Source: Mustelus asterias (lineage: Eukaryota). From it: a DNA stretch of 64,000 nucleotides. This document shows, one piece after another, positions 15,596-62,019 of this stretch. The DNA lies in the NCBI RefSeq assembly GCF_964213995.1, contig NC_135804.1, positions 26,846,001 through 26,910,000 on the forward strand, read 5' to 3'. Position 1 is the first letter of the stretch; the number at the start of each line of letters is the position of its first letter. The position numbers were made by a program, and so were the translations under genes. Under the pieces are notes generated by a model. The model was not told the DNA's origin. It ran no database searches and saw only the letters and a program-made list of their open reading frames with translations.

Positions 15596-15890
15596 AATAT
15601 CAAAGCAAATTACTGTGGATGCTGGAATCTGAAAGAAAAACAGAAAATGCTGGAAAATCTCAACAAGTCTGACTGCACTTGTGGAGAGAGAATAGAGCCA
15701 ACATTTCAAGTCTGAACAACCCTTCATCAGAGCTGAAGACAAAGGAAATAGGATGAGATATACAACAGTGTAAATCTCATCCTTTTTTTGTCTTCAGCTC
15801 TGACAAGAGGACATCCAGACCTGAAATGTTGGCTCTATTCTCTCTCCACAGATGCAGTCAGACCCGCTGAGATTTTCCAACATTTTCTGA
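15596..15890 (-). mobile_element. Second-family Penelope fold-back insertion, with hammerhead remnants on both strands
   Basis: Inverted copies of the 45080-45210 sequence; TSD GTTTATTTACCCT at 15583-15595 / 15891-15903. Confidence 0.82.
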
Positions 15891-39029: not shown

Positions 39030-42000
39030 AGTGAGAACAGGAATCGGTGGAGAATGAATGCGTGGCTGAGGGACTGGAGCAAGGGACAAGGATTTGGGTA
39101 CTTGGATCATTGGGACCTCTTTAGGGGCAGGTGTGACCTGTTTAAAAAAGACGGGTGGCACTTGAATCCCAGGGGGACCAATATCCTGGCGGGAAGGTTG
39201 GCTAAGGCTACTGGAGAGACTTTAAACTAGAAAGGTTGGGGGGAGGGAATCGAAATGAGGGGACTGAGAGCGAGGAGGTTAGCTCGCAAATAGATAAGGA
39301 ATGTAAACAGGGTAAGAGGGAGGTTAGACGAGTGATGGAGAAGGGAAGTGCTCAGGCTGAAGGTCTGAGATGTGTCTATTTTAATGCCAGGAGTGTAGTG
39401 AATAAAGTGGATGAGCTTAGAGCGTGGATTGCTGCTTCGAATTGTGATGTGGTGGCCATTACGGAGACTTGGATGTCTCAGGGACAGGACTGGGTGCTTC
39501 AGGTGCCGGGTTTTAGATGTTTCAAGAAGGACAGGGAGGGAGGCAAGAGAGGGGGGGGAGTGGCACTGTTGATCAGGGATAGTGTCACGGCTGTAGAGAA
39601 GGTGGACGCCGTGGAGGGATTGACTACGGAGTCTCTGTGGGTGGAGGTTAGGAACAGGAAGGGGTCGGTAACGTTGCTGGGTGTTTTCTATAGGCCGCCC
39701 AATAGTAACAGAGATGTTGAGGAGCAGATGGGGAAACAGATCCTGGAGAGATGTAGGAATAACAGAGTTGTCATGATGGGAGATTTTAATTTCCCAAACA
39801 TAGATTGGAATATCCCTAGGGCTAGGGGTTTGGATGGAGAGGAGTTTGTTAGGTGTGTCCAGGAGAGTTTCCTGACACAGTATGTGGATAAGCCTACTAG
39901 AGGAGAGGCTGTACTTGATCTGGTGCTGGCTAATGAACCTGGACAGGTGGAGGATCTCTCGGTGGGTGAGCATCTTGGGGATAGCGATCATAATTCTATC
40001 TCCTTCACGATAGCATTGGAAAGAGATAGGATCAGGCAGGCTAGGAAAGTGTTTCTCTGGAGTAAAGGGAAATACAGTGTCATCAGGGAGGAAATTAGAC
40101 GGGTAAATTGGAAGGAGGCATTCTTGGGGAAAAGTACCGAAGGAAAGTGGAGGATTTTCAAGGAATGTTTGTCTGGAGCTCTGCATGACAACGTTCCGAT
40201 GAGACAGGGGGGTGTTGGTAGGGTACGGGAACCGTGGTGCACGAAGGTTGTGATGAACCTGGTGAATAAGAAAAGAGAGGCGTACAGAAGGTTCAGAGAG
40301 CTAGGAGGTGTTAAGGATTTAGAGGAGTATACGGGATGTAGGAAGGAGCTTAAGAAGGAAATTAGGAGAGCGAGAAGGGGTCATGAGAAGGCCTTGGCGG
40401 GTAAGATTAAGGAGAATCCCAAGGCTTTCTACAAATATGTCAAGAGTAAAAGGATGAGATGTGAAGGCATAGGACCCTTAAAAGGTGAAGGGGGAAAAGT
40501 TTGTGCGGAACCGTTAGAAATGGCGGAGCTGCTTAATGAATACTTTACCTCGGTATTCACGGTGGAAAGGGATCTGGGTGGTTGTACTGCTGGTTTGCAG
40601 TGGACAGAAAGGATCGAGCATGTGGACATAAAGAAAGAGGATGTGTTGGAACTATTGAATGGCATCAAGGTTGGTAAGTCGCCGGGACCGGATGGGATGT
40701 ACCCCAGGTTACTGTGGGAGGCGAGGGAGGAGATTGCGGAGCCTTTGGCGATGATCTTTGCATCGTCGATGGAGACGGGAGAGGTTCCGGAGGATTGGAG
40801 GATTGCAGATGTGGTCCCTATATTCAAGAAAGGGAACAGGGACAGCCCGGGAAATTACCGACCGGTGAGTCTAACCTCAGTGGTTGGTAAGTTGATGGAG
40901 AGGATCCTGAGAGACAGGATTTATGATCATCTAGAGAAGTTTAGTATGATCAAAAGTAGTCAGCAGGGCTTTGTCAAGGGCAGGTCGTGCCTTACGAGCC
41001 TGGTTGAGTTCTTTGAAAATGTGACCAAACACATTGACGAAGGAAGAGCGGTGGATGTGGTCTATATGGACTTCAGCAAGGCGTTCGATAAGGTCCCCCA
41101 TGCAAGACTTCTCGAGAAAGTGAGAGGGCATGGGATCCAAGGGGCTGTTGCCTTGTGGATCCAGAACTGGCTTGCCTGCAGAAGGCAGAGAGTGGCTGTG
41201 GAGGGGTCTTTCTCTGCATGGAGGTCAGTGACCAGTGGAGTGCCCCAGGGATCTGTTCTGGGACCCTTGCTGTTTGTCATTTTCATAAATGACCTGGATG
41301 AGGAAGTGGAGGGATGGGTTGGTAAGTTTGCTGACGACACCAAGGTAGGTGGTGTTGTGGATAGTTTGGAGGGATGTCAGAAGTTGCAGCGAGACATAGA
41401 TAGAATGCAAGACTGGGCGGAGAAGTGGCAGATGGACTTCAACCCGGATAAGTGTGTGGTGATCCATTTTGGCAGATCCAATGGGATGAAGCAGCAGTAT
41501 AATATGAAGGGTACCATTCTTAGCAGTGTAGAGGATCAGAAGGACCTTGGGGTCCGGGTCCATAGGACTCTTAAATCGGCCTCGCAGGTGGAGGATGCGG
41601 TCAAGAAGGCGTACGGCGTACTGGCCTTCATTAATCGAGGGATTGAGTTTAGGAGTCGGGAGATAATGCTGCAGCTTTATAGGACCCTGGTTAGACCCCA
41701 CTTGGAGTACTGCGCGCAGTTCTGGTCACCTCATTACAGGAAAGATGTTGAAGCCATTGAAAGGGTGCAGAGGAGATTTACAAGGATGTTGCCTGGATTG
41801 GGGGGCATGCCTTATGAGGATAGGTTGAGGGAGCTTGGTCTCTTCTCCCTGGAGAGACGAAGGATGAGAGGTGACCTGATAGAGGTTTACAAGATGTTGA
41901 GAGGTCTGGATAGGGTAGACTCTCAGAGGCTATTTCCAAGGGCTGAAATGGTTGCTACGAGAGGACACAGGTTTAAGGTGCTGGGGGGTAGGTACAGAGG

Positions 42001-42226
42001 AGATGTCAGGGGTAAGTTTTTCACTCAGAGGGTGGTGGGTGAGTGGAATCGGCTGACGTCGGTGGTGGTGGAGGCAAACTCGTTGGGGTCTTTTAAGAGA
42101 CTTCTGGATGAGTACATGGGATTTAATGGGATTGAGGGCTATAGATAGGCCTAGAGGTGGGGATGTGATCGGCGCAACTTGTGGGCCGAAGGGCCTGTTT
42201 GTGCTGTGGCTTTCTATGTTCTATGT
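39030..42226 (+). mobile_element. CR1 LINE, 5'-truncated within ORF1 (SGNH esterase-like end), intact ORF2, (TTCTATG)n tail
   Basis: ORF1 end MNAWLRDW..DGWHLN..G; ORF2 with APE and RT; CR1 3' end GGGCCGAAGGGCCTG..TTCTATGTTCTATG. Confidence 0.95.
39236..42148 (+). CDS. CR1 ORF2: apurinic-type endonuclease + reverse transcriptase, 970 aa open
   Basis: YFNARS, ITETW, GDFN, SDH (APE); [19 protein letters not shown] (RT). Confidence 0.92.
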   Translation: MGGGNRNEGTESEEVSSQIDKECKQGKREVRRVMEKGSAQAEGLRCVYFNARSVVNKVDELRAWIAASNCDVVAITETWMSQGQDWVLQVPGFRCFKKDREGGKRGGGVALLIRDSVTAVEKVDAVEGLTTESLWVEVRNRKGSVTLLGVFYRPPNSNRDVEEQMGKQILERCRNNRVVMMGDFNFPNIDWNIPRARGLDGEEFVRCVQESFLTQYVDKPTRGEAVLDLVLANEPGQVEDLSVGEHLGDSDHNSISFTIALERDRIRQARKVFLWSKGKYSVIREEIRRVNWKEAFLGKSTEGKWRIFKECLSGALHDNVPMRQGGVGRVREPWCTKVVMNLVNKKREAYRRFRELGGVKDLEEYTGCRKELKKEIRRARRGHEKALAGKIKENPKAFYKYVKSKRMRCEGIGPLKGEGGKVCAEPLEMAELLNEYFTSVFTVERDLGGCTAGLQWTERIEHVDIKKEDVLELLNGIKVGKSPGPDGMYPRLLWEAREEIAEPLAMIFASSMETGEVPEDWRIADVVPIFKKGNRDSPGNYRPVSLTSVVGKLMERILRDRIYDHLEKFSMIKSSQQGFVKGRSCLTSLVEFFENVTKHIDEGRAVDVVYMDFSKAFDKVPHARLLEKVRGHGIQGAVALWIQNWLACRRQRVAVEGSFSAWRSVTSGVPQGSVLGPLLFVIFINDLDEEVEGWVGKFADDTKVGGVVDSLEGCQKLQRDIDRMQDWAEKWQMDFNPDKCVVIHFGRSNGMKQQYNMKGTILSSVEDQKDLGVRVHRTLKSASQVEDAVKKAYGVLAFINRGIEFRSREIMLQLYRTLVRPHLEYCAQFWSPHYRKDVEAIERVQRRFTRMLPGLGGMPYEDRLRELGLFSLERRRMRGDLIEVYKMLRGLDRVDSQRLFPRAEMVATRGHRFKVLGGRYRGDVRGKFFTQRVVGEWNRLTSVVVEANSLGSFKRLLDEYMGFNGIEGYR

Positions 42227-47199: not shown

Positions 47200-47930
47200 A
47201 CAATTGCTGCATGGATACATCGCCACAACAGAGAGCGCTCCGACACGGTACCTCATCGTTACGGTGTGAACGGGAGAGAATCCGGACACCGGGGTATATC
47301 AGGCAGCCTGAAGCACTGGATCAGCACAAAGCGACATGTTGTCCGGCTGCGTCTCCCCCACACCAGCCTCACCCAGCCCGCGACAGCGGCCTGAGCCACC
47401 CGGCAGGGCTCCACCAATCCGGGGCCGCACCCTCAGCAACCCACCAATCCGGGGCCGCACCCTCAGCAACCCACCAATCCGGGGCCGCACCCTCAGCAAC
47501 CCACCAATCCGGGGCCGCACCCTCAGCAACCCACCAATCAGAGTCCACACCCTCATCAATCCACCAATCAGAGTCCAGACCCTCAGCAATCCACCAATCA
47601 GAGGCCACACCCTAATCATTCCACCAATCAGAGTCAGCACCCTCAGCAACCCACCAATCCGGGGCCGCACCCTCAGCAACCCACCAATCAGGGTCAGCGC
47701 CCTCAGCAATTCACCAATCAGGAGCCACATCTTCAGGGGGCCCACCAATCAGAGTCCACACTCTCACCAATCCACCAATCAAGATCAGCACCCTCAGCAA
47801 TCCTACCAATCAGAGACCACACCCTCAGCAATCCTACCAATCAGAGACCACACCCTCAGCAATCCACCAATCAGGGCCTGCACCATCAGCAACCCGCCAA
47901 TCAACAAGCTCCGGCCGCAGGGCACCTCAG
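47200..47930 (-). promoter_or_regulatory. CpG-rich putative DEF8 promoter / non-coding first exon
   Basis: Main non-repeat CpG-rich patch upstream of coding exon 1, which has a splice acceptor and so needs an upstream exon; candidate donors CTGG|GTGAGG (~47373) and AG|GTACCG (~47252). Confidence 0.55.
47411..47905 (+). repeat. 30-bp minisatellite, ~17 units, consensus CCACCAATC(A/C)G(A/G)G(T/G)CC(A/G)CACCCTCAGCAA(C/T)
   Basis: Direct reading: first four units identical, later units diverged; each contains CCAAT. Confidence 0.95.
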
Positions 47931-48291: not shown

Positions 48292-48433
48292 GAACCAAAA
48301 CAGAAAATGCTGGAAAATCTCAACCGATCTGACAGCATCTGTGAAGAGAGAATAGAACCAACATTTTGAGTTGGGATGATCCAGGGTTTTCTGTTTTTGT
48401 TTCAGATTCCAGCATCTGCAGTAATTTGCGTTT
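48292..48433. mobile_element. Penelope fold-back remnant (host of the U2-derived element)
   Basis: AAAACAGAAAATGCTGG... and ...CAGATTCCAGCATCTGCAGTAATTTGC, as in 15602-15700. Confidence 0.65.
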
Positions 48434-48753
48434 CTCGGCCTTTTGGCTAAGATCAAGTGTGGTTATGCCGATGCTGCACTTGGTAGTGGCCATTGAGTTG
48501 CATTTAAGCTTCATATGTTTCATATGAAGCAATTTTTAAAAGCGGTATCTCGGCATTTTGGCTGAGATGCAAATGAGATCAAGCCTTGGAGGAGGAAGAT
48601 CTGCGCCTCCTCCAATCAGCTTGGCTCATGTAGATCAGGCCCAAGACAGGGTAGAGGCTTGCATGCCCTGTCTTGTCAGCCTGGATCGGAAATGTCTCAA
48701 CTTGTTGAGACTATGATTCGGACTTGATTTGATTGTATTGGAAAAGTGTAAAA
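48434..48753 (+). mobile_element. U2 snRNA-headed structured retroposon (SINEU-like) with short A tail and 11-bp TSD
   Basis: 48432-48460 is identical to U2 nt 6-34; flanked by AATTTGCGTTT at 48423-48433 and 48754-48764. Confidence 0.75.
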
Positions 48754-48984
48754 AATTTGCGTTTATCTTATGGTTCCTGTGGATCTTTGCATCACCCTTA
48801 TTCCTCAGATGCATTGTGTCCACTACAACCAAGTAAAAACGTAAATGGCCACTGAAAGTGTCACGTGCTGGTGGCAATGTGCAGTTCACTCAGGGTATGT
48901 GCTTGTGTGCTACCTTTCACCTCTCACAGGCACCACATGCAGCATTGTTTGCAAACCTTTCCAACACTGATACCTTAACAATAA

Positions 48985-49157
48985 TGATGTGGAGATGCCG
49001 GTGTTGGACTGGGGTAAACACAGTAAGGAGTCTAACAACACCAGGTTAAAGTCCAACAGGTTTATTTGGTAGCAAACGCCACTAGCTTTCGGAGGCTAGT
49101 GGCGTTTGCTACCAAATAAACCTGTTGGACTTTAACCTGGCGTTGTTAGACTCCTTA
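48985..49157 (-). mobile_element. Penelope-derived fold-back insertion
   Basis: ~64-bp inverted arms around TTTCGGAG; same terminus GATGTGGAGATGCCGG. Confidence 0.8.
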
Positions 49158-50391
49158 CCATAATAATCCCTCAGAGCTACTGGTCCCAGGCTGAAAAATG
49201 ATCTTGTTCAAGATGTCGACAACTGGAAAGGACTTCCCTGCCTCAAAGGGGCCAGAGACGGCATGGTGGCACAGTGATTTGCACTCACAGTGCCAGGGAC
49301 CTGGGTTCAATTCTGGCCTTGGGTGACTGCCTGTGTGGAGTTTGCACATTCTCCCTGTGCAGCCTTGTCTGTGACCCACAACAGTCTCTTTGGGTACAGT
49401 GCAGCCCTGTCACCCCACTTTGGTTGTGCTTGAGACAGAAGCTTTGCAGCGGTGAGAGAGATGGCAGCAGTGCAGTGTGATGTGCAGGTGAATATATGTA
49501 CCAACTTACCAGCATTTTAAAGTGCCTGTCTCGCTCGGCCTTCCTGACTCAGGCCACGTGAGACTCAGGTAGTGAAGCACATCCCTGGCTCCAGCATAGA
49601 ATTGTCAAAGGAGCAGAGCGAAGGAGGACATGCCTCCCTTTTACGGGGGGTGGGGTGACATCAGTGGGGGGGGGGGGGGGGGGGGGGGTGCAGGTCAGGT
49701 GGGTTGTTCGGGTGGCAAGGGGTCGTCGGGCCATCGTTCAGGTCAGGCGGGGGGGGAGTCAGACAACCAGGCTGCGGACTGAGGCCATGGAGCTGGGTCA
49801 GGGGAGAGTCGGTCAGGTCACGGGAGTTGTCAGGCCTGGGCACGTGTGGGACTGGGCTGAGTCAGGTCAGGGGCTCAGGTCGAGAGTGTGGGGAATACGT
49901 GCAGCTTTCCCATGTGGGTCTTTAAAATAGTTACGCTGAAGTTAGAAGGGCTTTTATTTGTTTCAGAGTAACGATGAGGATAGAACTGGAGTTCTGATGT
50001 TAGTGATTTAAATCGCTTTGTCAGATGATTCCCAGCCCAGCATAATCGTCCAGGGAAAGTTAGCCCTTGCTATGTAAACCCTTACCTGGGAACTTCTGAG
50101 AGCGATTCCCCAGCACATCTTTGGGGTTAGCCCCAAATCCGATGACGCTGGGGAGTTAGGAAGTAATGGGACGTTGTTTCTGTGATGTAGTGGCATGTTT
50201 CTATTCAGCAAACTATATAGGAACACAGGAATGTACAGGACCTGAGAAGGCTATTTCAGTCCATCTGGCCAGCACCAGAATTCAAAACTAGAAAGCACTA
50301 TTCACTAATGAAATTACTGAAATTGATTTTCTCCACAATTCCCTTTTACAGTTTCTGATGTTACAAGCCTCCAGATAAGGATTTGTCTTAA

Positions 50392-55438: not shown

Positions 55439-58400
55439 ACTCCAAAACAAGTATATTGTTTTTGGATAGTGTGGAGGAGGATGACTCTCCAGGGGTAAGC
55501 CACAGTGACCAGGTCACTGGCACAGAGTCAGGCTCTGTGGCCCGGAAAGGAAAGAGAGGGGTTAGGAGAGCAATAGTGGTGGGGGATGCACGGACAGGTG
55601 ATTCTGTGGGTGCGAACGGGACTCCAGGATGGTAGTCTGCCTACCTGGTGCTGGGGTAATGGATGTCACCGAGCGGATAGGAGGCATCTTAAAAGGGGAA
55701 GATAAAGAAACGGATGTCATTGTACACATTGGTGCAAATGACGTAGATAGGAAGAGCAGGGGGATCCTACGAGAGCAATTCAGGGAGTTGGGAAATAGAC
55801 TAAAAAGTAGGGCCACCAGGGTGGCCATCTCTGGGCTGCTCCCAATGCCTCGTGCCAGTGAGGCTAAGAATAGGGAGTTAGTACAATTGAATGCTTGGCT
55901 AAAGGACTGGTCCAGGAGGGAGGGCTTCACTTTCCTAGATCAATGGGAAGTTTTCAGGAGAGGATGGCACCTGTACAAGAAGGATGGGTCACAACTAAGT
56001 TGGAAGGGCACGAATATCCTGGCTGGGAGTTTTGCTAGTGCAGTTCGGGGGGTTTAAACTAGTATGGCAGGGGGGTGGGGATCAAAATATTAGGTCTACA
56101 AGTGTAGAGGCTGGGGACGAGCTTGGGGCTGGGACAAGGCTGGCAAAGAAGAAGAGCACTCTGGGGGAGGATGACCTCACTGGGCCTGGAGGTCTGGAGT
56201 GCTGATACTTCAATGCAAGGAGCATAGCAGGTAAGACAGACGAACTTAGGGCCTTAATGCTCACGAGGAATTTGGATGTGGTTGCGGTGACAGAGACTTG
56301 GTTGAAAGAGGGACAGGACTGGCAGCTGAATATGCCGGGGTACAAGTGTTTTAGGCGAGACAGAGGAGGGGCCAAAAGAGGTGGGGGAGTAGCAGTATTA
56401 GTTGGAGAGCATATTACAGCGGTGCAGAGGGAGGACAATTCAGAGGGGTCGTGTAACGAGTCACTCTGGGTGGAGCTTAGAAACAGGAAGGGTGCAGTCA
56501 CTATGTTGGGGGTATACTACAGGCCCCCCAACAGCCCAAGGGAAGTGGAAGAACGGATATGTCAGGAGATACTGGATAGGTGCAGGAAAAAAAGGGTTGT
56601 TGTAGTGGGAGACTTCAATTTCCCTGGTATAGACTGGAAATCGCTGAGAGCTGGGACTCCGAATGGGGAGGAATTTGTAAATTGCGTACAGGAGGGTTCT
56701 TTGGAACAATATGTAGATAGCCCGACTAGAGAGGGGGCTATACTGGACCTCGTACTGGGGAATGAGCCCGGTCAGGTCTTCAAAGTTTCGGTAGGGGAAC
56801 ATGTGGCAAATAGTGACCACAATTCTGTTAGCTTTAGGATAGTGATGGAAAAGGATGAGTGGTGTCCCAAGGGTAAAGTGTTGGATTGGGGGAAGGCTAA
56901 CTTTAGTGTGATTAGGCAGAAATTGGCAGCTCTTGATTGGGAGAGGCTGTTTGAGGGTAAATCCACATCTGGCATGTGGGAGTCTTTTAAGGAACAGTTG
57001 TTAGGGCTGCAGGACAGGCATGTGCCTATAAAAAAGGATAGGAAGGGTAGGATTCGAGAACCGTGGATAACCAGGGAAATTGAGGGACTGGTCAAAAAGA
57101 AAAGAGAGGCGTATATTAGGTCCAGGCAACTAAAAACGGAGGGAGCTCTGGAGGAGTACAAAGAAAGTAGGAAAGAACTCAAACAGGGAATTAGAAGGGC
57201 AAAAAGGGGTCACAAAATGTCCTTGGCAGACAGGATTAAGGAGAATCCCAAGGCATTTTATTCATACGTTAGGAACAAAAGGGTTGTCAGGGAAAAAATC
57301 GGACCTCTCAGGGACAAAAGTGGGGAATTATGCTTGGAGCCCAAAGAAGTAGGGGAGATCCTAAATGAATACTTTGCGTCGGTATTCACAAAGGAGAGGG
57401 GTGTGTTGACTGGGAGTGTCTCGGAGGGGAGTGTTGAACCGTTGGAGAAAATCTCCATTACAGGGGAGGAAGCGTTAGGTTTGTTAGAGAATATAAAGAC
57501 TGACAAATCCCCAGGGCCTGATGGAATCTATCCAAGGCTGCTCAGGGAGACGAGAGATGAAATCGCTGGGCCTCTGACGCAAATCTTTGTCTCGTCACTG
57601 GACACAGGTGAGGTCCCAGAGGATTGGAGGATAGCTAATGTGGTCCCATTATTTAAGAAGGGTAGGAAGGATAACCTGGGTAATTATAGGCCGGTGAGCT
57701 TGACGTCCGTGGTGGGGAAGTTGTTGGAGAAGATTCTTAGAGATAGGATGTATGCGCATTTAGAAAGGAATAAACTCATTAACGATAGTCAGCATGGTTT
57801 TGTGAGAGGGAGGTCATGCCTCACTAACCTGGTAGAGTTTTTTGAAGAAGTGACCAGAATGGTTGACGAGGGAAGGGCCGTGGATGTCGTCTATATGGAC
57901 TTTAGAAAAGCGTTTGACAAAGTCCCTCATGGTAGGCTGGTGAAAAAGGTTGGATCTCATGGGATAAAGGGGGAGGTGGCTAGATGGGTGGAGAACTGGC
58001 TTGGTCACAGAAGACAGAGGGTGGTAGTGGAAGGGTCTTTTTCCGGCTGGAGGCCTGTGACTAGTGGTGTTCCGCAGGGCTCTGTATTGGGACCTCTGCT
58101 GTTTGTGATTTATATAAACGATCTGGAAGAAGGTGTAACTGGGGTGATCAGTAAGTTTGCGGACGACACAAAATTGGCAGGACTTGCAGATAATGAGGAG
58201 CATTGTCAGAAGCTACAGAAGGATATAGATAGGCTGGAAATTTGGGCAAAGAAATGGCAGATGGAGTTCAATCCTGATAAATGCGAAGTGATGCATTTTG
58301 GTAGAAATACTGTAGGGAGGAGCTATACGATATTTGGCAGAACCATAAAGGGTGTAGATACGCAGAGGGACCTGGGTGTGCAAGTCCACAGATCCTTGAA

Positions 58401-59058
58401 GGTGACATCACAGGTGGAGAAGGTGGTGAAGAAGGCATATGGCATGCTTGCCTTTATAGGACGGGGCATGGAGTATAAAAGTTGGGGTCTGATGTTGCAG
58501 ATGTATAGAACGTTGGTTCGGCCGCATTTGGAATACTGCGTCCAGTTCTGGTCGCCACACTACCAGAAGGACGTGGAGGCTTTGGAGAGAGTACAGAGGA
58601 GGTTTACCAGGATGTTGCCTGGTATGGAGGGGCTTAGTTATGAGGAGAGATTGGGTAAACTGGGGTTGTTCTCCCTGGAAAGACGGAGGATGCGGGGAGA
58701 CTTAATAGAGGTGTATAAAACTATGAAAGGCATAGATAGGGTGAACGGTGGGAAGCTTTTCCCCAGGTCAGTGGTGACGTTCACGAGGGGTCATAGGTTC
58801 AAGGTGAAGGGGGGGATGTTTAACACAGATATCAGAAGGACATATTTTACACAGAGGGTCGTGGGGGCCTGGAATGCGCTGCCAGGCAAGGTGGTGGAGG
58901 CGGACACACTGGGAACGTTTAAGACTTATCTAGATAGCCATATGAACGGAGTGGGAATGGAGGGATACAAAAGAATGGTCTAGTTTGGACCAGGGAGCGG
59001 CACGGGCTTGGAGGGCCGAAGGGCCTGTTCCTGTGCTGTATTATTCTTTGTTCTTTGT
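55439..59058 (+). mobile_element. CR1 LINE with partial ORF1 and near-complete ORF2, inserted in the Gypsy 3' LTR
   Basis: ORF1 esterase motifs (VIVHIGANDV), ORF2 APE+RT, (TTCTTTG)n tail, ATCAC duplication at 55434-55438 / 59059-59063. Confidence 0.93.
56257..58983 (+). CDS. CR1 ORF2 (908 aa open part); in-frame TGA at 56203 just before the YFNARS motif suggests an inactivated copy
   Basis: APE and RT motifs; upstream frame reads ...LEC*YFNARS. Confidence 0.8.
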   Translation: MLTRNLDVVAVTETWLKEGQDWQLNMPGYKCFRRDRGGAKRGGGVAVLVGEHITAVQREDNSEGSCNESLWVELRNRKGAVTMLGVYYRPPNSPREVEERICQEILDRCRKKRVVVVGDFNFPGIDWKSLRAGTPNGEEFVNCVQEGSLEQYVDSPTREGAILDLVLGNEPGQVFKVSVGEHVANSDHNSVSFRIVMEKDEWCPKGKVLDWGKANFSVIRQKLAALDWERLFEGKSTSGMWESFKEQLLGLQDRHVPIKKDRKGRIREPWITREIEGLVKKKREAYIRSRQLKTEGALEEYKESRKELKQGIRRAKRGHKMSLADRIKENPKAFYSYVRNKRVVREKIGPLRDKSGELCLEPKEVGEILNEYFASVFTKERGVLTGSVSEGSVEPLEKISITGEEALGLLENIKTDKSPGPDGIYPRLLRETRDEIAGPLTQIFVSSLDTGEVPEDWRIANVVPLFKKGRKDNLGNYRPVSLTSVVGKLLEKILRDRMYAHLERNKLINDSQHGFVRGRSCLTNLVEFFEEVTRMVDEGRAVDVVYMDFRKAFDKVPHGRLVKKVGSHGIKGEVARWVENWLGHRRQRVVVEGSFSGWRPVTSGVPQGSVLGPLLFVIYINDLEEGVTGVISKFADDTKLAGLADNEEHCQKLQKDIDRLEIWAKKWQMEFNPDKCEVMHFGRNTVGRSYTIFGRTIKGVDTQRDLGVQVHRSLKVTSQVEKVVKKAYGMLAFIGRGMEYKSWGLMLQMYRTLVRPHLEYCVQFWSPHYQKDVEALERVQRRFTRMLPGMEGLSYEERLGKLGLFSLERRRMRGDLIEVYKTMKGIDRVNGGKLFPRSVVTFTRGHRFKVKGGMFNTDIRRTYFTQRVVGAWNALPGKVVEADTLGTFKTYLDSHMNGVGMEGYKRMV

Positions 59059-59150: not shown

Positions 59151-61548
59151 GAACATAGAACATAGAACATAGAACATAGAACATTACAGCGCAGAACAGG
59201 CCCTTCGGCCCACGATGTTGCACCGACCAGTTAAAAAAAAAACTGTGACCCTCCAACCTAAACCAATTTCTTTTCGTCCATGAACCTATCTACGGATCTC
59301 TTAAACGCCCCCAAACTAGGCGCATTTACTACTGATGCTGGCAGGGCATTCCAATCCCTCACCACCCTCTGGGTAAAGAACCTACCCCTGACATCGGTTC
59401 TATAACTACCCCCCCTCAATTTAAAGCCATGCCCCCTCGTGCTGGATTTCTCCATCAGAGGAAAAAGGCTATCACTATCCACCCTATCTAAACCTCTAAT
59501 CATCTTATATGTTTCAATAAGATCCCCTCTTAGCCGCCGCCTTTCCAGCGAAAACAATCCCAAATCCCTCAGCCTCTCCTCATAGGATCTCCCCTCCATA
59601 CCAGGCAACATCCTGGTAAACCTCCTCTGCACCCTCTCCAAAGCCTCCACATCCTTCCTGTAATGTGGGGACCAGAACTGCACACAGTACTCCAAGTGCG
59701 GCCGCACCAGAGTTGTGTACAGTTGCAACATAACGCTACGACTCCTAAATTCAATCCCCCTACCAATAAACGCCAAGACACCATATGCCTTCTTAACAAC
59801 CTTATCTACTTGATTCCCAACTTTCAGGGATCTATGCACACATACACCTAGATCCCTCTGCTCCTCCACACTATTCAAAGTCCTCCCGTTAGCCCTATAC
59901 TCAACACATCTGTTATTCCTACCAAAGTGAATTACCTCACACTTCTCCGCATTAAACTCCATCCGCCACCTCTCGGCCCAACTTTGCAACCTGTCTAAGT
60001 CTTCCTGCAAACTACGACACCCTTCCTCACTGTCTACCACACCACCGACTTTGGTGTCATCAGCAAATTTGCTAATCCACCCAACTATACCCTCATCCAG
60101 ATCATTAATAAATATTACAAACAGCAGTGGCCCCAAAACAGATCCCTGAGGTACACCACTTGTAACCGCACTCCATGATGAATATTTACTATCAACCACC
60201 ACCCTCTGTTTCCTATCCGCTAGCCAATTCCTGATCCAATTTCCTAGATCACCCCCAATCCCATACATCTGCATTTTCTGCAGAAGCCTACCATGGTGAA
60301 CCTTATCAAACGCCTTACTAAAATCCATATATACCACGTCCACTGCCTTGCCCCCATCCACCTCCTTGGTCACTTTCTCAAAAAACTCAATAAGGTTAGT
60401 AAGGCACGACCTACCTGCCACAAAACCATGCTGACTATCACCTATCAATTCATTACTCTCCAAATAACTATAAATCCTATCCCTTATAATTTTTTCCAAC
60501 ATCTTGCCGACAACAGAAGTGAGACTCACCGGTCTATAATTCCCGGGGAAGTCTCTGTTCCCCTTCTTAAACAATGGGACAACATTCGCTAACCTCCAAT
60601 CTTCTGGTACTATACCAGAGGCCAACGACGACCTGAAGATCAGAGCCAGAGGCTCTGCAATCACTTCTCTTGCCTCCCAGAGAATCCTTGGATAAATCCC
60701 ATCCGGACCAGGGGATTTATCTATTTTCAGACCCTCCAGAATATCCTGCACATCCTCCTTATCAACTGTAATACTGTCTATTCTACTCCCTTGCAACCCA
60801 GTGTCCTCCTCAGCTATATTCATGTCCCCTTGCGTGAACACCGAAGAGAAATATTGGTTCAATGCTTCACCAATCTCCTCCGGTTCCACACATAACTTCC
60901 CTCTGCCATCTATAACTGGCCCTAAACTTGCCCTAACCAACCTTCTGTTCTTGACATACCTATAGAACGCCTTAGGATTCTCTTTAACCCTATCCGCCAA
61001 AGTCTTCTCATGTCCCCTTTTAGCCCTTCTAAGCTCGCTCTTCAACTCCCTCTTAGCCAATCTAAAGCTTTCTAGTGCACTACCCGAGTGCTCACGTCTC
61101 ATCCGAACATAAGCCTCCTTTTTCTTTTTAACCAACAAAGAAACTTTTTTGGTGCACCACGGTTCCCTAGCCCTACCAATTCCTCCTTGCCTGACAGGGA
61201 CATACCTATCACAGACTCGCAGTAGCTGCTCCTTGAAAAAACTCCACATGTCGGACGTTCCCAGTCCCTGTAATCTCCTAGTCCAACCTATGTTTCCTAA
61301 TTCTCTCCTAATAGCCTCATAATTACCCTTCCCCCAGCTAAAACCACTGGCCCGAGGTTCATGCCTATCCCTTTCCATCACTAAGGTGAACGTAACCGAA
61401 TTGTGGTCACTATCACCAAAATGCACACCAACTTCCAAGTCTAGCACCTGGTCTGGCTCATTTCCCAGCACCAGATCCAATATAGCCTCACCTCTAGTTG
61501 GCCTGTCTACATACTGAGTCAAAAAACCTTCCTGCACGCTTTGAACAA
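59151..61548 (-). mobile_element. CR1 LINE, 5'-truncated, ORF2 open over 59258-61537
   Basis: SDH, RT motifs FADD; (TTCTATG)n tail at 59151-59182. Confidence 0.93.
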
Positions 61549-62019
61549 AGAGATTATCAAGTGTAGAGGCCTGATAATCAGATGCTAATTTATTCTAATT
61601 GGGATTCCCATTACATCACTGATGGGGTGGGGGCATCAGCACTAAATGTTGGCCAATCCAGCGAAGCCCACAGCCCATAAATTATTTTTTTTAAGAAGCA
61701 GTTAAATCATTAAGATGGCTATTTTGTCAAGCCTAGAGGTTTGGTGAGAAGGAAAGCTTGTTTCAATTTACATTCTAGGCATCGTGATTTGATCCACGTA
61801 AAAGGGAATACAAAGATCTGAAGACAGCCTTCTTGAGTCAGAGCTCATGGGACTGTTGAAAGTCCCAACACCTATGGAGGTCAAATTAAGTCTGCGGAAA
61901 CCAGGCTGCATAAGTCTATTGTGAAACTGTAATTGTCATTATACTATTGGTGTCTGAGTAATAAACTTGCATTTGGACAATACATCTGAGCCTGATTCAC
62001 AAAGAATTATTTAATTGAG

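Follow-up and report, generated by a model that had tools for sequence, protein, structure and literature searches.

A U2 snRNA-headed SINE family in the shark Mustelus asterias, likely transcribed from U2 promoters and copied by a Keno-type Tx1 LINE

Introduction

A 64,000-nt stretch of the Mustelus asterias genome (positions 26,846,001 to 26,910,000 of contig NC_135804.1, referred to here as the window) contains a short unit, at 48423-48764, that opens with a piece of U2 snRNA and continues as a series of hairpins. This locus raises the question of what such a unit is, from which promoter its RNA might be made, and which machinery might copy it. SINEs with snRNA heads have no internal promoter, and their transcription is left as an open question in the accessible part of Kojima 2015 (PMC4494074), where the SINEU class was defined from crocodilians only and linked to Tx1-Mar and to Mariner-N4 targets. 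Later papers give the crocodilian range again; in one of them SINEU and SINE28 are jointly assigned to avian, crocodilian and mammalian genomes (PMC8010984, in part), and a further paper makes no mention of snRNA, SINEU or Tx1 (PMC5499810). Our literature search, which had most subscription journals, Repbase Reports and Dfam outside its scope, found no shark SINEU and no SINE sourced from U2 arrays. We propose that this shark genome records a testable answer to the transcription question, in the form of copies fused behind U2 gene flanks and of retrocopies that bear those flanks. The reading that we favour, and consider probable, is that a U2-derived SINE inserts at U2 nt 37/38, that the U2 promoter likely drives its transcription and that a Keno-type Tx1 LINE likely copies it.

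Results

The window copy and its neighbourhood

The features of the window copy and of its immediate surroundings are as follows.

48293..48422 (no strand assigned): host repeat with inverted arms, outside the element, which is inserted at the repeat's end
48423..48433 (+): left target-site duplication, 11 bp, AATTTGCGTTT; its last 2 bases also lie within the U2 match
48432..48463 (+): U2 head, truncated at its 5' end and covering nt 6-37, without a mismatch over nt 6-34 and with G in place of A35
48451..48485 (+): hairpin 1 (48451-63 with 48473-85), in which the branch-site-recognition region of the head pairs with element-specific sequence
48508..48530 (+): hairpin 2, with a stem of 10 bp that symmetric deletions have made shorter in some subfamilies
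48531..48541 (+): A-T5-A4 tract, single-stranded, with a hairpin on either side; the Rfam alignment places it at the U2 Sm site
48545..48570 (+): second U2 5' piece, folded as an extended stem I
48573..48629 (+): module B hairpin, a long one of about 21 bp, with a variable loop
48632..48749 (+): module C, a degenerate U2 derivative, homologous to an older 220-nt U2-derived family
48636-53/48664-83 and 48694-700/48705-11 (+): hairpins of module C, the second aligning with U2 stem IIb
48740..48755 (+): 3' end and short A run (48750-48755); the family form is AAAGTA-(T)n-(A)n, like a Tx1 LINE end
48754..48764 (+): right target-site duplication, 11 bp, AATTTGCGTTT

The original prediction had described a perfect 29-nt copy of U2, and 48432-48460 is indeed identical at 29/29 positions to nt 6-34 of a U2 gene from the same genome. 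It also held that identity ends at nt 34, but the match runs on to nt 37 with one change (33/35 identical over nt 3-37 of that gene), and the head of the window copy ends at the Keno insertion site. The 11-bp duplication said to bound the unit is present at both ends and is corroborated by a paralogue of the host repeat at window position 15630 (minus strand), where the target site is single and empty. The U2 word reported to recur three times does so at 48450, 48576 and 48632, and the suspected second copy of U2 stem I corresponds to U2 nt 7-27 at 48548-48568 (19/21 identical), folded as an extended stem I. No U2 upstream flank accompanies the window copy, which is probably a dead end, and the element head contains no U1 match longer than 9 nt.

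The window is rich in repeats, and no host gene was recognised in it. Endonuclease-RT open frames of 980, 925 and 778 aa, at 39206-42148, 56206-58983 and 59258-61594, belong to other LINEs, which we take to be CR1-like. A 30-bp tandem repeat at 47300-47900 has open frames on both strands, and a near-perfect 64-bp inverted repeat (98%) lies at 49023-49158; short hairpin repeats of this type also occur within U2 spacers and have served as targets of SINE insertion (L010, L026).

A young family of U2-headed copies

A similarity search of the shark's own genome gave 2,051 candidates, the best 40 of which are near full length at 93-100%. An internal 18-mer has 5,191 exact matches (2,592 + 2,599) against none for its control, and a 24-mer from the head has 3,696. 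Among the first 30 exact U2-head matches taken by position, 28 belong to this SINE family, one to an older family and one to neither; the 18-mer is exact in 20 of those 28 copies, which gives an estimate of about 7,300 copies. At L166 (C1:8827652, minus strand) a U2 head leads into sequence that resembles neither the SINE nor the older family nor the LINE 5' end. We collected 130 copies by a 3' anchor, 108 with a head and 22 without; 34 of the headed copies come from similarity-ranked loci and 74 were sampled by position.

The element is about 320 nt long, and its copies differ from their nearest neighbours by 0.9-17% (median 3.3%). Exact duplications of at least 8 bp (median 14) flank 50 of the 108 headed copies, compared with 7 of 500 mismatched-flank controls. 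The start falls at U2 +1 in 21 of the 108, and the majority of the rest begin within the first 8 nt. Insertions are found at U2 nt 37/38, in the SINE's own head region and at diverse look-alike sites; 27 of 43 independent sites have an A at -3 (p = 7e-6), a base also present there at the U2 site and the window site, and the preference for a pyrimidine at -1 of these 43 sites is not significant (p = 0.06). Subfamilies are very numerous, with dozens of coexisting variants and loops of widely different and mixed types; the hairpin 1 loop is highly variable among them. Four-gamete tests between subfamilies give 25-36% incompatible pairs at all distances, with no decay with distance. The subgroup of the window copy is represented by 100 exact matches of a diagnostic 24-mer, none of them on C24. 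Beyond this species, the comparison covers the 3' part only (48575-48750): a search with 48575-48790 against runs from four other organisms matched 261, 815, 63 and 429 contigs, with lineage-specific variants.

The window element is thus a dispersed copy of a young snRNA-headed SINE family, with many copies of one structure as opposed to independent chimeras, and a single pseudogene is excluded. The single-copy outcome that the original prediction named as its refutation is contradicted by the 18-mer matches.

Two of the 108 copies are A-to-G hypermutated on the sense strand, this change making up 22 of 26 and 14 of 20 differences from their nearest relatives (L138, minus strand, offset 524, and L075). 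The pattern suggests that ADAR may have edited an RNA intermediate; the overall excess of A>G over T>C (p = 0.011) rests on these two copies, and no A-to-G-edited SINE retrocopies were found in a literature search with most subscription journals outside its scope. Separately, a SINE or LINE lies antisense within the hairpin 1 loop region of another SINE at L006, L075/L076 and L231; such nests are inverted over about 300 bp, and the head region is a target on both strands.

Fold and selection on RNA structure

The window copy folds at -134.9 kcal/mol (z = -7.25), a stability equalled by none of 100 shuffles. The six stems named in the original prediction appear in this fold and are recovered when the alignment is folded, and most pairs are intact in 90-100% of copies. 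The description of the unit as a chain of stem-loops is sound to this extent, although "all-hairpin" slightly overstates the case, the last 40 nt or so (48712-48753) folding only weakly.

To assess selection we took stems from the window copy alone and excluded CpG and A>G changes; the last stems of the alignment fold, fixed by the anchors used to collect copies, were left out. Variants common to at least 4 copies number 58 outside stems, 12 within stems with pairing kept and 9 within stems with pairing broken, whereas the corresponding numbers for variants found in 1-2 copies are 73, 16 and 74. Tests of inherited against private variants give p = 5e-4 and 1.5e-7, values to be taken as guides because the copies are related, and p = 7e-5 and 4e-5 when only the 74 position-sampled copies are used. 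Private variants break the stems, which inherited ones preserve; hence the source elements were selected to keep the fold. The structure had been called designed-looking and stem covariation proposed as its test: selection against stem-breaking changes bears this out, but strong two-sided covariation is not part of the picture, since the pairing-preserving changes are mostly one-sided and compensatory changes on both sides few. One two-sided case is the pair 48638/48681, which is G-C in 84 copies, G-T in 13 and A-T in 10; A and T predominate there in run X19, from another organism.

In the fold, hairpin 1 hides the sequence able to pair with the branch site, and this masking may serve to protect splicing. 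For the position at which U2 sequence gives way to the body, the cut site alone suffices as a cause.

Origin of the body

The original prediction described the roughly 290 nt after the head as a chain of stem-loops, one of them a second U2 stem-I-like copy. The body is not wholly new sequence, and its 3' third is U2-derived. The link runs through an older family of about 220 nt (for example C1:9699466-9699700, minus strand), the best 40 of whose 3,030 candidates, a number that may include members of the main family, match at 87-92%, the query aside. Its copies are about 90% identical and lack the branch-site-recognition sequence; they begin with a U2 head, after which a hairpin replaces the branch-site region and U2 stem IIb, the Sm site and stem III follow. 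Module C aligns with the older family at a score of 94.5, and the older family with U2 nt 38-170 at 99.5, each score being reached by 0 of 1000 shuffles. Direct comparison of module C with U2 is not significant (73/1000 shuffles; 83/1000 for the window copy), so that the U2 ancestry of module C is derived through the older family only. Sequence comparison thus traces three parts to U2: the head, the 3' third and, at 48548-48568, the second 5' piece. For the bodies of modules A and B, likeness to U2, module C or the older family is not significant (98-757/1000), and the idea of three stacked U2 modules, which we also considered, holds only for the two 5' pieces and module C.

A Keno-type Tx1 LINE as partner

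Keno inserts 37 nt into U2 ahead of a defined 3' target (PMC6136364, in part), and is set apart by its AP endonuclease (PMC4640811, in part). In one array of U2 genes in the shark genome, each 8,035-bp unit contains a LINE with a ZCCHC3-type zinc-knuckle ORF1, an AP-type endonuclease and RT. It carries a U2 head of its own and is inserted at U2 nt 38, where the Keno 3' target follows, with a duplication of 19 bp. Among named proteins, its endonuclease is closest to one from Heterodontus (70% over 35% of the query), and named amphibian and teleost matches stand at 34-49%. The LINE ends in AAAGTATATTTTTGAAA plus an A run, resembling the AAAGTA-(T)n-(A)n of the SINE; the shared tail is only about 12 nt long. 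LINE copies carry U1 and U2 heads.

Of the 23 dispersed matches listed for the LINE 5' end, 20 were examined: 4 abut or lie within a SINE, 6 are copies of one SINE-LINE-SINE cluster and 10 are away from any SINE. None of the 20 has a full ORF2, the longest being 1,063 aa. The cluster has been multiplied within a larger duplicated unit on unplaced contigs (L213, L219-L221, L223, L227), and no U2 promoter is found in its flanks there. A second Tx1 family at U2 sites has a different 3' end (L046:3630-4870, L274), and one of its truncated copies has a U1 piece before the U2 head.

Head, tail, target and nesting are shared by the SINE and the Tx1 LINE, which argues that the SINE is a passenger, likely mobilised by this Keno-type element. 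The alternatives first offered, an snRNA-derived SINE or a non-autonomous passenger of a U2-targeting LINE, turn out to be one thing.

Copies in the U2 arrays

U2 genes occur in arrays on C24. In one, 8,035-bp units (at least 16 copies, C24:44815000-44941000) each contain an intact U2 and a U2 broken by a Keno-type LINE that is itself broken. At the edge of the array that lies near 43 Mb, at C24:43.06 Mb, the U2 upstream flank is intact and U2 nt 1-37 pass directly into a SINE with an internal deletion, followed by a truncated LINE, a second SINE and U2 nt 38-191. The flank-bearing units of the C24 array number 42, of which 32 are U2, 9 are variant U2 and only this one, internally deleted, has the SINE, a proportion that counts against U2 arrays as the source. 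The search for promoter-fused copies with the C24 flank likewise returned 1 among the 40 scored of 1,095 candidates. The 9 variants (C24:43020089-43053167, L266-L269) carry at nt 37 a short duplication of the head, or two, in place of the next bases; they are spread within the array and may be abortive insertions or SINE precursors.

A second type of U2 gene, diverged in its 3' half, forms a short array with a 448-bp unit on C21 (28051000-28082000, L313-L316). This array is heavily interrupted by LINE and SINE, has units on both strands and holds one intact SINE. Its 5' flank has 26 matches, which continue into SINE (10), LINE (5), U2 (4) or other sequence (7). The 10 SINE matches represent 8 loci, namely the intact copy in the C21 array and 7 dispersed inserts. 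Around 5 of these 7, flank and SINE together are enclosed by duplications (18 bp on C14, 16 on C6, 13 on C7, 10 on C1 and a candidate 10 on C2); the loci on C8 and C11 have none. The insert on C14 spans 1.7 kb and reproduces three consecutive units, each interrupted by a SINE, and one flank precedes differing subfamilies.

The array copies that we saw are fused right after U2 nt 1-37 with no 5' duplication, and hence the +1 of the gene is also the +1 of the SINE. All have an A tail, with U2 resuming behind it at nt 38, which marks them as insertions. The array spacer before the SINE at 7 dispersed loci, 5 of them with duplications, shows that array copies have served as sources, and the footprint is that expected if array copies are transcribed and retrotransposed. 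The transduced inserts start upstream of +1, which implies read-through, and a neighbouring LINE could drive it. The array flank precedes none of the 108 ordinary copies, which consequently do not name their source; no array source was found for the window subgroup, whose nearest transduced relative is 92% identical. The original prediction proposed a search for a master copy with a PSE/DSE upstream: copies do stand behind U2 5' flanks in two arrays, but comparison of flanks did not identify a PSE, the weak likeness to U1 flanks being reached by 9-24 of 1000 shuffles.

Competing explanations

The same SINE and LINE might instead be fed mostly by dispersed copies that are read through from outside, with U2 arrays as one of many sources. 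SVA elements are transcribed by read-through from upstream promoters in this way. This reading, which we regard as rather unlikely, would fit the very many subfamilies with mixed loop types and the few array-resident copies in the assembly, and the two copies rich in A-to-G change might need a long RNA duplex of the kind that inverted nests give. It does not account for the exact U2 +1 start in 21 of 108 copies, nor for the recurrence of the U2-array flank at 7 dispersed loci when the only other recurrent 5' flanks among the copies are SINE, U2 and one shared host repeat. Read-through transcription has been proposed for SINEU as well (PMC4494074, in part).

We consider it very improbable that one or more functional variant snRNA genes are the source, with the copies as processed pseudogenes and the structure serving a cellular role. 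At gathering scores Rfam has no match in the 64-kb window. Its U2 model aligns over its whole length at 48427-48628 with the T tract at the Sm site, and this alignment, the selected structure and the 9 flank-bearing variant units on C24 speak for such a gene; the score, however, is 35 bits against a cut-off of 46, and the tract, exact in 84 of 108 copies and T6 in 11, is without the canonical closing G of an Sm site. Dozens of variants coexist, no tailless master was seen in a non-exhaustive search, and the array copies bear the A tail and the U2 nt 38 junction of insertions. For the window copy itself, an identity as a U2 or variant U2 gene was rejected on the same score, the missing flank, and the A tail and duplication. 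When E values up to 10 are admitted, U2 is still the one meaningful match; U4, with an E value of 4.1, is at chance level.

Independent chimeras, formed each time LINE machinery copying a headless RNA jumps to U2 snRNA, could explain the extra U2 pieces upstream of 2 of the 108 copies and the LINE copies with U1 and U2 heads; against them stand a junction position identical in all copies, pairing of head and body in a conserved stem and, above all, the inherited G at nt 35 (26 of 108 heads, neither U2 type), which largely refutes an explanation that we find highly unlikely. An ordinary polymerase III SINE whose internal promoter escaped recognition hardly deserves credence, for although the element is short and structured with a variable T run before its A tail, none of the 108 copies has a B box and every one has two or more tracts of at least four T, which argues against polymerase III; as a classical SINE1, SINE2 or SINE3 it was rejected for want of internal promoter boxes and of a tRNA, 7SL or 5S head match in Rfam, which gave no ribozyme match either.

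Discussion

The cycle that we propose for a U2-derived SINE resident in U2 arrays has six steps. Array copies stand fused after U2 nt 1-37, so placed that the +1 of the gene is also that of the SINE. RNA from such copies has been retrotransposed, as shown by the genomic footprint of dispersed, duplication-bounded inserts with spacer and U2 pieces around the SINE. The usual transcript would start at +1, be made by RNA polymerase II and be primed at the A tract, giving ordinary 320-nt copies. At a cut U2 gene the U2 head may anneal to the upstream half, yielding a seamless junction and a new source. A relaxed endonuclease would also cut look-alike sites and leave thousands of promoter-less copies, mostly dead ends, while turnover of array copies would supply many short-lived sources and with them many subfamilies. 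Finally, selection keeps the hairpins, most likely for RNA stability and for masking of the branch-site-pairing sequence.

A bolder extension, which we offer as speculation and think distinctly doubtful, is that the lineage is an snRNA mimic with a U2-like layout, a capped U2 5' end and an Sm-like tract. It would have been born repeatedly in U2 arrays from Keno-damaged genes, would enter snRNP export, Sm loading and re-import, and would have been selected to hide the branch-site-pairing sequence, sparing splicing; the arrays would hold all stages, from U2 variants with duplicated heads through the 220-nt family to the three-module element.

Sharks would be a second vertebrate lineage with snRNA-headed SINEs, and the family here is far younger and larger, its partner LINE and its target both being identifiable. 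The diversity of subfamilies amounts to a natural mutational scan of the RNA structure required by a retrotransposon passenger. A burden on U2 arrays is implied by the heavily interrupted small array on C21.

Among known systems, R2 and its non-autonomous derivatives live in a tandem RNA-gene array and form a seamless junction through a target-homologous 5' end, in rDNA, with polymerase I and a ribozyme. The shark SINE is similarly array-resident with a seamless junction, a strategy like that of R2, and differs in using U2 arrays, in having no Rfam ribozyme match and in its thousands of off-target copies. U2 retropseudogenes and U2/U6-LINE chimeras share with it an snRNA 5' piece, a target duplication and manufacture by a LINE, but they are one-off events, whereas the shark SINE forms a family that inherits its body, has subfamilies and keeps its structure under selection. 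R2 in 28S rDNA is cotranscribed with the host transcript (PMC4494074, in part).

Keno (Tx1) and Utopia share with the shark SINE and LINE both the insertion site, 37 nt into U2, and the target sequence on its 3' flank (PMC6136364, PMC4640811, both in part). They are autonomous, and the accessible parts of these papers mention no dependent SINE; the shark partner LINE, unlike them, is widely dispersed and carries a U2 head.

The closest parallel is SINEU. The shark element has a U2-derived head, is shorter than 500 bp, non-coding and A-tailed, and has target duplications, and its mobilisation by a Tx1-clade LINE is indicated indirectly, through evidence like that given in the accessible part of PMC4494074; it fits the SINEU class as defined there. 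As described in part of PMC4494074, the crocodilian SINEU-1, -2 and -3 likewise have a U2-derived head ending near nt 32-37, a length below 500 bp, an A tail and duplications. Tandem insertions and internal T tracts are further points in common, SINEU-1 shows repeated addition of U2 pieces, and SINEU-3 is an internally altered form of U2, to which the older 220-nt family is similar in plan. The partner Tx1-11_Crp, like the shark partner LINE, has its own U2 head. SINEU prefers Mariner-N4_AMi, whereas the shark SINE targets U2 nt 37/38, its own head and look-alike sites; and the accessible part of PMC4494074 reports for SINEU neither a source linked to a U2 promoter nor selection on RNA structure.
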